38,043 bases of DNA from Escherichia phage ECO95 1-6-1: the sequence record OR845259.1; one strand, 5' to 3'. Positions 12,837-13,108 of this stretch are shown here, in pieces (the stretch's first letter is position 1; each line of letters starts with the position of its first letter). Made by a program: the position numbers and the translations under genes. The notes below the pieces were generated by a model. That model was not told where the DNA came from and searched no databases. It saw only the letters and a list, made by a program, of their open reading frames with translations.

Positions 12837-12907
12837 TATTTTTCCTTTCAATTCATGGGTTAGTAGATTAATTATACAATAAATATATAAAGCAATAAGG
12901 AGGACAT

Positions 12908-13108
12908 ATGGTACAAAAATTAATGGCACTTGTTAATGCCATAAAAGGTAATAAGAAACGTATAGCTTTTACTATTTCTGCTATGGTAGGAATTTTACTC
13001 TGGAATTTTGTTTTATCGCCAATTGCTATTGCTCATGGCGTTAATATTCCAGTAATTACTCTTGATACATTCGTAGATTTAGCATTTGCTTTAGTTGGGT
13101 TAATTTAA
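12908..13108 (+). CDS. hypothetical small membrane protein (66 aa), plus strand
   Basis: ORF track; strong SD AAGGAGG 4 nt before ATG; two hydrophobic segments; lies in the 56-61 intergenic interval. Confidence 0.45.
   Translation: MVQKLMALVNAIKGNKKRIAFTISAMVGILLWNFVLSPIAIAHGVNIPVITLDTFVDLAFALVGLI

Follow-up and report, generated by a model that had tools for sequence, protein, structure and literature searches.

The window analysed in this study is a stretch of 38,043 nucleotides from Escherichia phage ECO95 1-6-1 (OR845259.1), and its junction of genes 56 and 61 is matched by 732 phage records, the best of which belong to Tequatrovirus phages of the pss1 type (KNP1, KNP5 and pSs-1, 97.6-97.8% identity). 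Gene 56, coding for the dCTPase/dUTPase, occupies 12318..12836 on the minus strand and forms the left border; it starts MAYFNECSQLIEG, matches the nucleoside triphosphate pyrophosphohydrolase profile phrog_173 with E = 1.5e-46 and is annotated as dCTPase in relatives. The right border is formed by gene 61 (13105..14133, minus strand), which encodes the DNA primase of 342 amino acids and matches phrog_47 (DNA primase, E = 7e-106). As in the T4 reference record, both genes lie on the minus strand. With the start of gene 56 at 12836 and the end of gene 61 at 13105, the gap extends over 12837..13104, which confirms the 268 bp given in the initial annotation. A GTG-extended version of gene 56 with 203 amino acids (12318..12929) was considered an ORF-finder artefact and rejected, since T4 gp56 begins at the homologous ATG.

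The only gene in this gap is a plus-strand ORF of 66 amino acids at 12908..13108, whose stop codon overlaps that of gene 61 by 4 nt (TTAA). A Shine-Dalgarno sequence, AAGGAGG, is positioned on the same strand at 12897..12903, 4 nt upstream of the ATG, and its core (A)GGAG(G) is found at the same position in every lineage aligned. The ORF with its two hydrophobic segments and its near-perfect Shine-Dalgarno sequence had been described correctly before. It was characterized by profile search, homologs, dN/dS, hydropathy and an AlphaFold2 model, and it is assigned to the phrog_2024 family (RB69ORF029w / RB32ORF030w). The match to the phrog_2024 profile is full-length, with residues 2-66 aligned to profile positions 1-65 of 65 (E = 5.4e-31), and the same profile is matched by proteins from Mosigvirus, Gaprivervirus (both copies, see below) and Jiaodavirus with E-values of 1e-24 to 1e-27. 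PHROG 2024 is annotated as function unknown; its members are named RB32ORF030w in some records and RB69ORF029w in RB69, and neither name was found in the literature searched.

By tblastn the ORF is present in 692 phage records, 686 of which cover at least 80% of its length. Homologs of 45-68% identity are located at the same position and on the same strand in Mosigvirus (RB69, F31), Gaprivervirus (VR25, TH40), Jiaodavirus and two metagenomic lineages, the Jiaodavirus protein (Klebsiella phage 311F) being 63 amino acids long. The window, vB_SsoM_113, T4, the metagenomic lineages, VR25, F31, 311F and RB69 share one arrangement, in which the ORF sits between genes 56 and 61 but runs opposite to them and converges on gene 61; at least four Tevenvirinae genera retain the gene in this tail-to-tail position relative to gene 61. 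Two tandem plus-strand copies are present in Gaprivervirus (VR25 locus L020, 2495..2692 and 2701..2901; locus L019, 267..464 and 473..673), of which the second is strongly diverged and still matches phrog_2024 and retains the motif LWN..P.A..QG..P. A profile search against 1.84 billion representative proteins returned six clusters only, all of them T4-like, and the family is therefore confined to the T4-like phage group; a scan of IMG/VR returned 7 loci only. In hundreds of T4-like genomes the ORF has already been annotated as a hypothetical gene, and the exact protein of the window is carried by 100 contigs under the NCBI name 'hypothetical protein'.

The ORF was not found at the 56-61 locus in the examples of Karamvirus, Krischvirus and Pseudotevenvirus examined, where other genes, including endonuclease-like ORFs, are situated instead. 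The Krischvirus KFS-EC (NC_055757.1) carries in its 590-bp gap between 61 and 56 an unannotated ORF of 187 amino acids on the strand of these two genes (locus L030, 2544..3107), which by its sequence looks like a homing endonuclease. A similar ORF of 165 amino acids lies between 61 and 56 of RB43 (locus L031, 2499..2996).

Substitution patterns within the family argue for selection on the protein. Nei-Gojobori estimates of dN/dS range from 0.11 to 0.35 in 13 of the 14 pairs that could be computed or bounded, the remaining value of 0.68 belonging to a close Gaprivervirus pair, and between genera the synonymous sites are saturated with the protein still alignable. None of the 14 sequences tested interrupts the plus-strand frame. 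A minus-strand gene running across the ORF was considered and rejected, as the frame that is often open there holds no ORF of at least 25 amino acids and has a stop codon in several lineages. The stretch LWN(F/Y/L)..P(I/L)A..(H/N/Q)G...P, with an acidic residue behind it, is the best conserved of the protein; L31, W32, N33, P38, A40, G44 and P48 are invariant in the main family alignment, and Jiaodavirus retains six of these seven (not L31), the Gaprivervirus paralog the full set. The pair of methionines Met1 and Met6, on the other hand, is not kept outside Tequatrovirus. As judged from these comparisons, the ORF of 66 amino acids is under purifying selection and is a real gene, thus more than a chance ORF.

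Copies of the ORF are also found in T4, between dam and 61 at NC_000866.4 17738..17938 (plus strand; locus L002, 4739..4939), and in T2, alongside dam at NC_054931.1 16642..16842 (locus L023, 2501..2701). Both encode 66 amino acids and are 92-94% identical to the protein of the window; the T4 copy differs from it by four conservative amino acid changes and likewise overlaps the gene 61 stop codon by 4 nt. Neither copy is annotated in the T4 records NC_000866.4, AF158101.6 and KJ477684.1, in the T2 record NC_054931.1 or in the 1984 record X01416, and no NCBI protein record was found for the exact T4 sequence. The T4 and T2 reference records thus miss a gene that every Tequatrovirus retains under purifying selection, and functional screens built on these annotations would have left it out. 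The ORF is among the few conserved T4 genes without function, name or literature. No phenotype of a classical T4 mutant is known to us to map to the 56-61 interval.

The position of the T4 and T2 copies bears directly on the relation between the ORF and dam. T4 does carry dam (16846..17625) between genes 56 and 61, as stated in the initial annotation, and the absence of dam from the locus in the present phage was likewise recognized correctly. The tblastn search with T4 Dam proposed there detected no Dam homolog, neither in the window (best E = 1.6) nor in KNP1, the nearest relative, whose complete genome has 165,831 bp (best E = 0.98). The further suggestion that the phage may instead express a small late membrane protein from this interval stands as far as a real gene, a predicted membrane protein and a late-type promoter are concerned, but the word 'instead' does not, because the synteny comparison of the 56-61 interval depicts dam and the ORF side by side in T4 and T2. 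The ORF is therefore no stand-in for dam.

The frequencies of the two genes point in the same direction. A gp61 of at least 95% identity is encoded in 501 records, the ORF at 80% identity or more in 502 and a Dam of at least 90% identity in 182, so that among records at the Tequatrovirus level the ORF is present in ~100% and dam in ~36%; the ORF is therefore a fixture of Tequatrovirus and dam a gene of about a third of its members. Mosigvirus, Gaprivervirus and Jiaodavirus display the compact 56-ORF-61 layout without dam. Together with the joint presence of dam and ORF in T4 and T2, these distributions indicate that the short interval is the common dam-less layout of T4-like phages and probably the ancestral state. 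That the ORF is alternative cargo occupying the place of dam in this phage, as could be read from its being the sole gene in a gap from which dam is missing, is next to impossible in view of the adjacency of both genes in T4 and T2, which refutes the replacement reading, and of the records just given.

In addition, the part of the interval that varies is another one. The window and T4 are collinear up to the -10/MotA-box region before gene 56 and again from the Shine-Dalgarno sequence of the ORF onward. Between the MotA box and this Shine-Dalgarno sequence T4 harbors ~880-900 bp, and in the window the two elements directly abut. The variable slot is thus located between gene 56 and the promoter of the ORF; it is empty in the window and filled by dam in T4, by dam plus an ORF of 546 bp in T2 and by a homing endonuclease in Yersinia phage fPS-2. 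The Dam cassette, absent from the window, is thus found at one and the same site in T4 and T2. The slot is a hot spot for optional genes, and dam is an optional cassette of ~0.9 kb beside an invariant gene, its gain and loss being a common polymorphism. The optional genes mentioned are positioned at 780..1430 of locus L010 (homing endonuclease of fPS-2) and at 1865..2410 of locus L023 (546-bp ORF of T2). As a separate observation, the match of ECO07P1/P3 to the 56-61 query spans ~650 bp more than the query.

Upstream of the ORF a late promoter box of the gp55 type, AATAAATA, is predicted on the plus strand at 12878..12885. It matches TATAAATA at 7 of 8 positions, the deviation being an A at -13, and is located 22 nt before the ATG. 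The initial annotation had pointed to a late-like motif in this region, TATATAAAG, which is indeed present at 12884-12892 but is not the relevant one, the overlapping AATAAATA having been overlooked. RNA polymerase carrying gp55 would transcribe the ORF late in infection from AATAAATA, with a start near 12891 and therefore a leader of 17 nt that carries AAGGAGG. The A at -13 is the commonest variant of the T4 late promoter (PMC2988020; PMC1524935): of the 50 T4 late sites listed by Geiduschek and Kassavetis 32 are perfect and 9 have A(-13) (PMC2988020), and in most T4-like phages the -13 position is A or T (Nolan et al., PMC1524935).

The ATAAATA heptamer is strongly depleted in the window, where two copies are found on both strands taken together versus 24.6 ± 4.95 expected. 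One belongs to the box described above, the other to the sole perfect TATAAATA of the window (12307..12314, minus strand), which lies 31 nt before the start codon of a soc-like gene (12039..12275) and is the counterpart of the classical late promoter known for soc. The KNP1 genome contains 53 heptamers versus 94 expected, and 27 of them are followed within 8-70 nt by a Shine-Dalgarno sequence and a start codon that opens an ORF of 40 amino acids or more, compared with 6.8% of random positions. The distances observed in KNP1 are 12-47 nt with a median of 26 nt; that of the window is 22 nt.

The box is also retained in diverged lineages. In 16 of 17 such loci, including RB69, NATAAATA is positioned 12-22 nt before the ATG within flanks that cannot be aligned; the exception is the metagenomic lineage L006, which has TATTAATA in place of the box. 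The -13 position is G in T4 and T2 (GATAAATA) and C in Gaprivervirus. In T4 the box covers 17,709-17,716 of NC_000866.4, and the late transcript predicted from it would begin at about 17,721-17,723. In T4 and T2 the box is situated on the far side of dam, in a context unrelated to that of the window, and it is therefore kept beside the ORF in both arrangements. As T4 early and middle transcripts all derive from the strand of genes 56 and 61 and only late ones use both strands (PMC2988020; PMC1524935), the ORF, as read from its upstream sequence, carries a late-type promoter on the strand that is used only by late transcription, and we infer that it is expressed late.

A short late gene embedded in an early region is known from T4, namely soc (Macdonald and Mosig 1984; X01416), which like the ORF has its own TATAAATA-type box and a strong Shine-Dalgarno sequence. 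Both genes are located a few hundred bases apart in the same early cluster and share the only ATAAATA heptamers of the window. They differ in that soc, whose late transcript is proven, lies on the minus (early) strand and codes for a soluble protein that decorates the capsid, whereas the ORF lies on the plus strand and its product is predicted to be membrane-bound and late.

Its location within an early gene cluster might nevertheless suggest that the ORF, although a real gene, is expressed early or middle, all the more as none of the 31 RB69 late promoters predicted by Nolan et al. (2006; PMC1524935) precedes RB69ORF029w. These authors stated that every late promoter they found stood before an ortholog of a known T4 late gene. 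The uniform polarity of the early and middle T4 transcripts, which is that of genes 56 and 61, and the conservation of the late box at the right distance from the ORF both speak against such timing, and the sole plus-strand match to a sigma-70-like promoter upstream is a weak one (9/12, ending at 12839) of a kind no commoner than in shuffled sequence. Early or middle expression thus appears highly unlikely.

Opposite the late box the minus strand harbors the signals of gene 56. A MotA box, TATTGCTTTA, at 12888..12897 and a -10 element, TATAAT, at 12871..12876 constitute a middle promoter of the MotA type that serves this gene. The box is an exact match to the consensus (a/t)(a/t)(a/t)TGCTTtA, and the -10 element lies 11 bp downstream of it, within the published spacing of 12 ± 1 bp (PMC2988021); a middle promoter is predicted at the same place in the annotation of fPS-2. 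The late box is found wholly inside the spacer of the middle promoter and the MotA box touches the Shine-Dalgarno sequence of the ORF, and two promoters are therefore packed back to back within ~30 bp. The homologous promoter before gene 56 of T4 is the one linked to the replication origin oriA. A change from AATAAATA to AATACATA would thus also alter the spacer of the middle promoter that serves gene 56.

Further into the ORF, within its codons 2-12, a terminator-like hairpin with a T run (ATGGCATT-AACA-AGTGCCAT, 12913..12942, minus strand) is located downstream of gene 61. It is kept in T4 and T2 and not conserved in Mosigvirus and Gaprivervirus, its conservation being restricted to Tequatrovirus. 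No intrinsic terminator was found on the plus strand within 3.4 kb after the ORF, and a late transcript would therefore run antisense into gene 61. Of the 150 start sites of phage transcription that a dRNA-seq study reports for T4, 22 are antisense (bioRxiv 10.1101/2024.04.04.588121). In the metagenomic lineage L006 the ORF and gene 61 do not overlap, and between them (4470..4480) a GC-rich hairpin, CTAGGGCTTGTCCCTAG, is present and is followed by T-rich sequence on either strand, so that it resembles a terminator acting in both directions.

This accumulation of signals raises the question whether the region might be kept for the terminator behind gene 61, the middle promoter that serves gene 56 and an antisense RNA that lowers primase expression late in infection, with the ORF left untranslated or its product immaterial. 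The overlap of the hairpin and of a perfect MotA-type promoter with the 5' end and leader of the ORF would fit such an explanation, and so would the antisense transcript expected for want of a plus-strand terminator. It is scarcely probable, however, given dN/dS values well below 1 with saturated synonymous sites, protein motifs that are retained where the DNA can no longer be aligned, a strong Shine-Dalgarno sequence in every lineage, a tandem protein paralog in Gaprivervirus and a hairpin that is not conserved outside Tequatrovirus. An antisense role may exist alongside coding but cannot explain the patterns of coding conservation.

With regard to the encoded protein, residues 19-42 form a first hydrophobic segment with a Kyte-Doolittle mean of 2.0, a clear membrane span. 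The second segment, residues 47-66, has a mean of 2.0 as well and contains Asp53 and Asp57; its score for simple membrane insertion is unfavourable. All five Lys/Arg residues are found between residues 4 and 18 (positions 4, 13, 16, 17 and 18), and the last charged residue is Asp57, the C-terminus reading LAFALVGLI. The AlphaFold2 model, computed from six sequences and of moderate confidence (mean pLDDT 72.6), contains helices 2-14, 16-42 and 52-63 with a loop at residues 43-51. In RB69ORF029w, according to the predictions of Nolan et al., residues 21-41 form a single transmembrane segment and a signal peptide is lacking. The product is very probably a small membrane protein, predicted from hydropathy and model to lie in the inner membrane. 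Its one convenient tryptic peptide is LMALVNAIK, and the protein may therefore escape standard proteomics.

According to the positive-inside rule a basic N terminus remains in the cytoplasm. The protein of 66 amino acids would thus be inserted into the inner membrane with its N terminus inside, the basic amphipathic helix of residues 2-14 staying cytoplasmic and residues 19-42 spanning the membrane. The short conserved loop H-G-x-x-x-P would face the periplasm, and the C-terminal helix (approximately residues 49-66, with the two Asp residues) would be embedded or fold back. Because of these two Asp residues and the unfavourable insertion score of the second segment, the topology could also be that of one span with a periplasmic tail. 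In the hairpin arrangement the most conserved stretch, LWN(F/Y/L)..P(I/L)A..(H/N/Q)G...P, would sit at the periplasmic end, which suggests that the product binds another membrane component late in infection.

Searches of Pfam, NCBIfam, PADLOC and PDB sequences matched no family of known function. The sole hits, to NqrE transmembrane helices (E = 0.028) and to SNARE (E = 0.14), were judged compositional and discarded. When viral models were searched by fold, the only hits were a family member and two proteins of 63 amino acids with 27% identity (E = 0.14-0.23), one of them from Enterobacter phage CIP9. Any role proposed is a guess because no family of known function matches. The ORF probably encodes a small inner-membrane protein that is made late and acts through its periplasm-proximal motif on another membrane component; that it modulates the envelope or lysis timing is our best guess, offered tentatively and more likely wrong than right.

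Some features of the ORF product recall a holin: it is small, has two hydrophobic helices and is likely to be expressed late. In addition, UniProt entry A0A482MZV5 from phage OE5505, 88% identical to the protein of the window, bears the name 'Holin'. A transmembrane helix, of which a holin has at least one in a small protein, is found at residues 19-42 (16-42 in the model). In particular, class II holins and pinholins such as S21 of phage 21 resemble the ORF product in length (~65-70 amino acids) and in possessing two hydrophobic helices, and holins are made late, as is predicted for the ORF. The holin or pinholin reading, according to which the product makes the lethal membrane lesion at lysis, is nonetheless quite improbable. 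Holins have a charged cytoplasmic C-terminal tail, whereas the charges of the ORF product are N-terminal and its chain ends in ...FALVGLI, with no charged hydrophilic tail. No holin family of Pfam or NCBIfam is matched at E <= 10, the PHROG function is unknown and NCBI names the very protein of A0A482MZV5 'hypothetical protein'. The Met1/Met6 pair, which was considered as a dual-start motif of the holin type, was rejected as a sign of a holin since it is absent from the other genera. In T4 the holin is the product of gene t and t mutants do not lyse, so that a second sufficient holin is unlikely; holin T is unrelated to the ORF product. A weaker version, in which the protein is an accessory that tunes lysis timing, is conceivable.

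Taken as a whole, the locus is in all likelihood an ordinary dam-less T-even 56-61 junction with a conserved gene on the plus strand, predicted to encode a small late inner-membrane protein. Beyond this, the gene might represent an unrecognised core late membrane protein of the T-even phages, a partner of holin T and antiholin RI or of membrane-bound head assembly, or else its transcript might silence the primase gene 61 in antisense; we regard this wider interpretation as unlikely. If it were true, any screen built on T4 or T2 annotations would miss the gene. With the layout and the ORF annotated already in hundreds of T4-like genomes, the finding has little significance for the window itself, and the points worth passing on are the gap in the T4 and T2 annotations and the strong case that the sequence makes for late expression. 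A gene that can be predicted to be late and membrane-bound is easy to test.

Two minor observations were made elsewhere in the window. The neighbouring minus-strand ORFs 14302..14658 and 14660..15301, of 118 and 213 amino acids, share a C-terminal tail, SIDDQIFNAFMN(R/K)G, and KNP1 lacks a counterpart of ~980 bp over the larger one (14312..15292), suggesting that a 61.2-like gene has been duplicated or inserted. At 21547..21639, 65-90 bp also match two other places in KNP1, near 43.5 kb and 59.4 kb, with 88-95% identity and constitute a short dispersed repeat.
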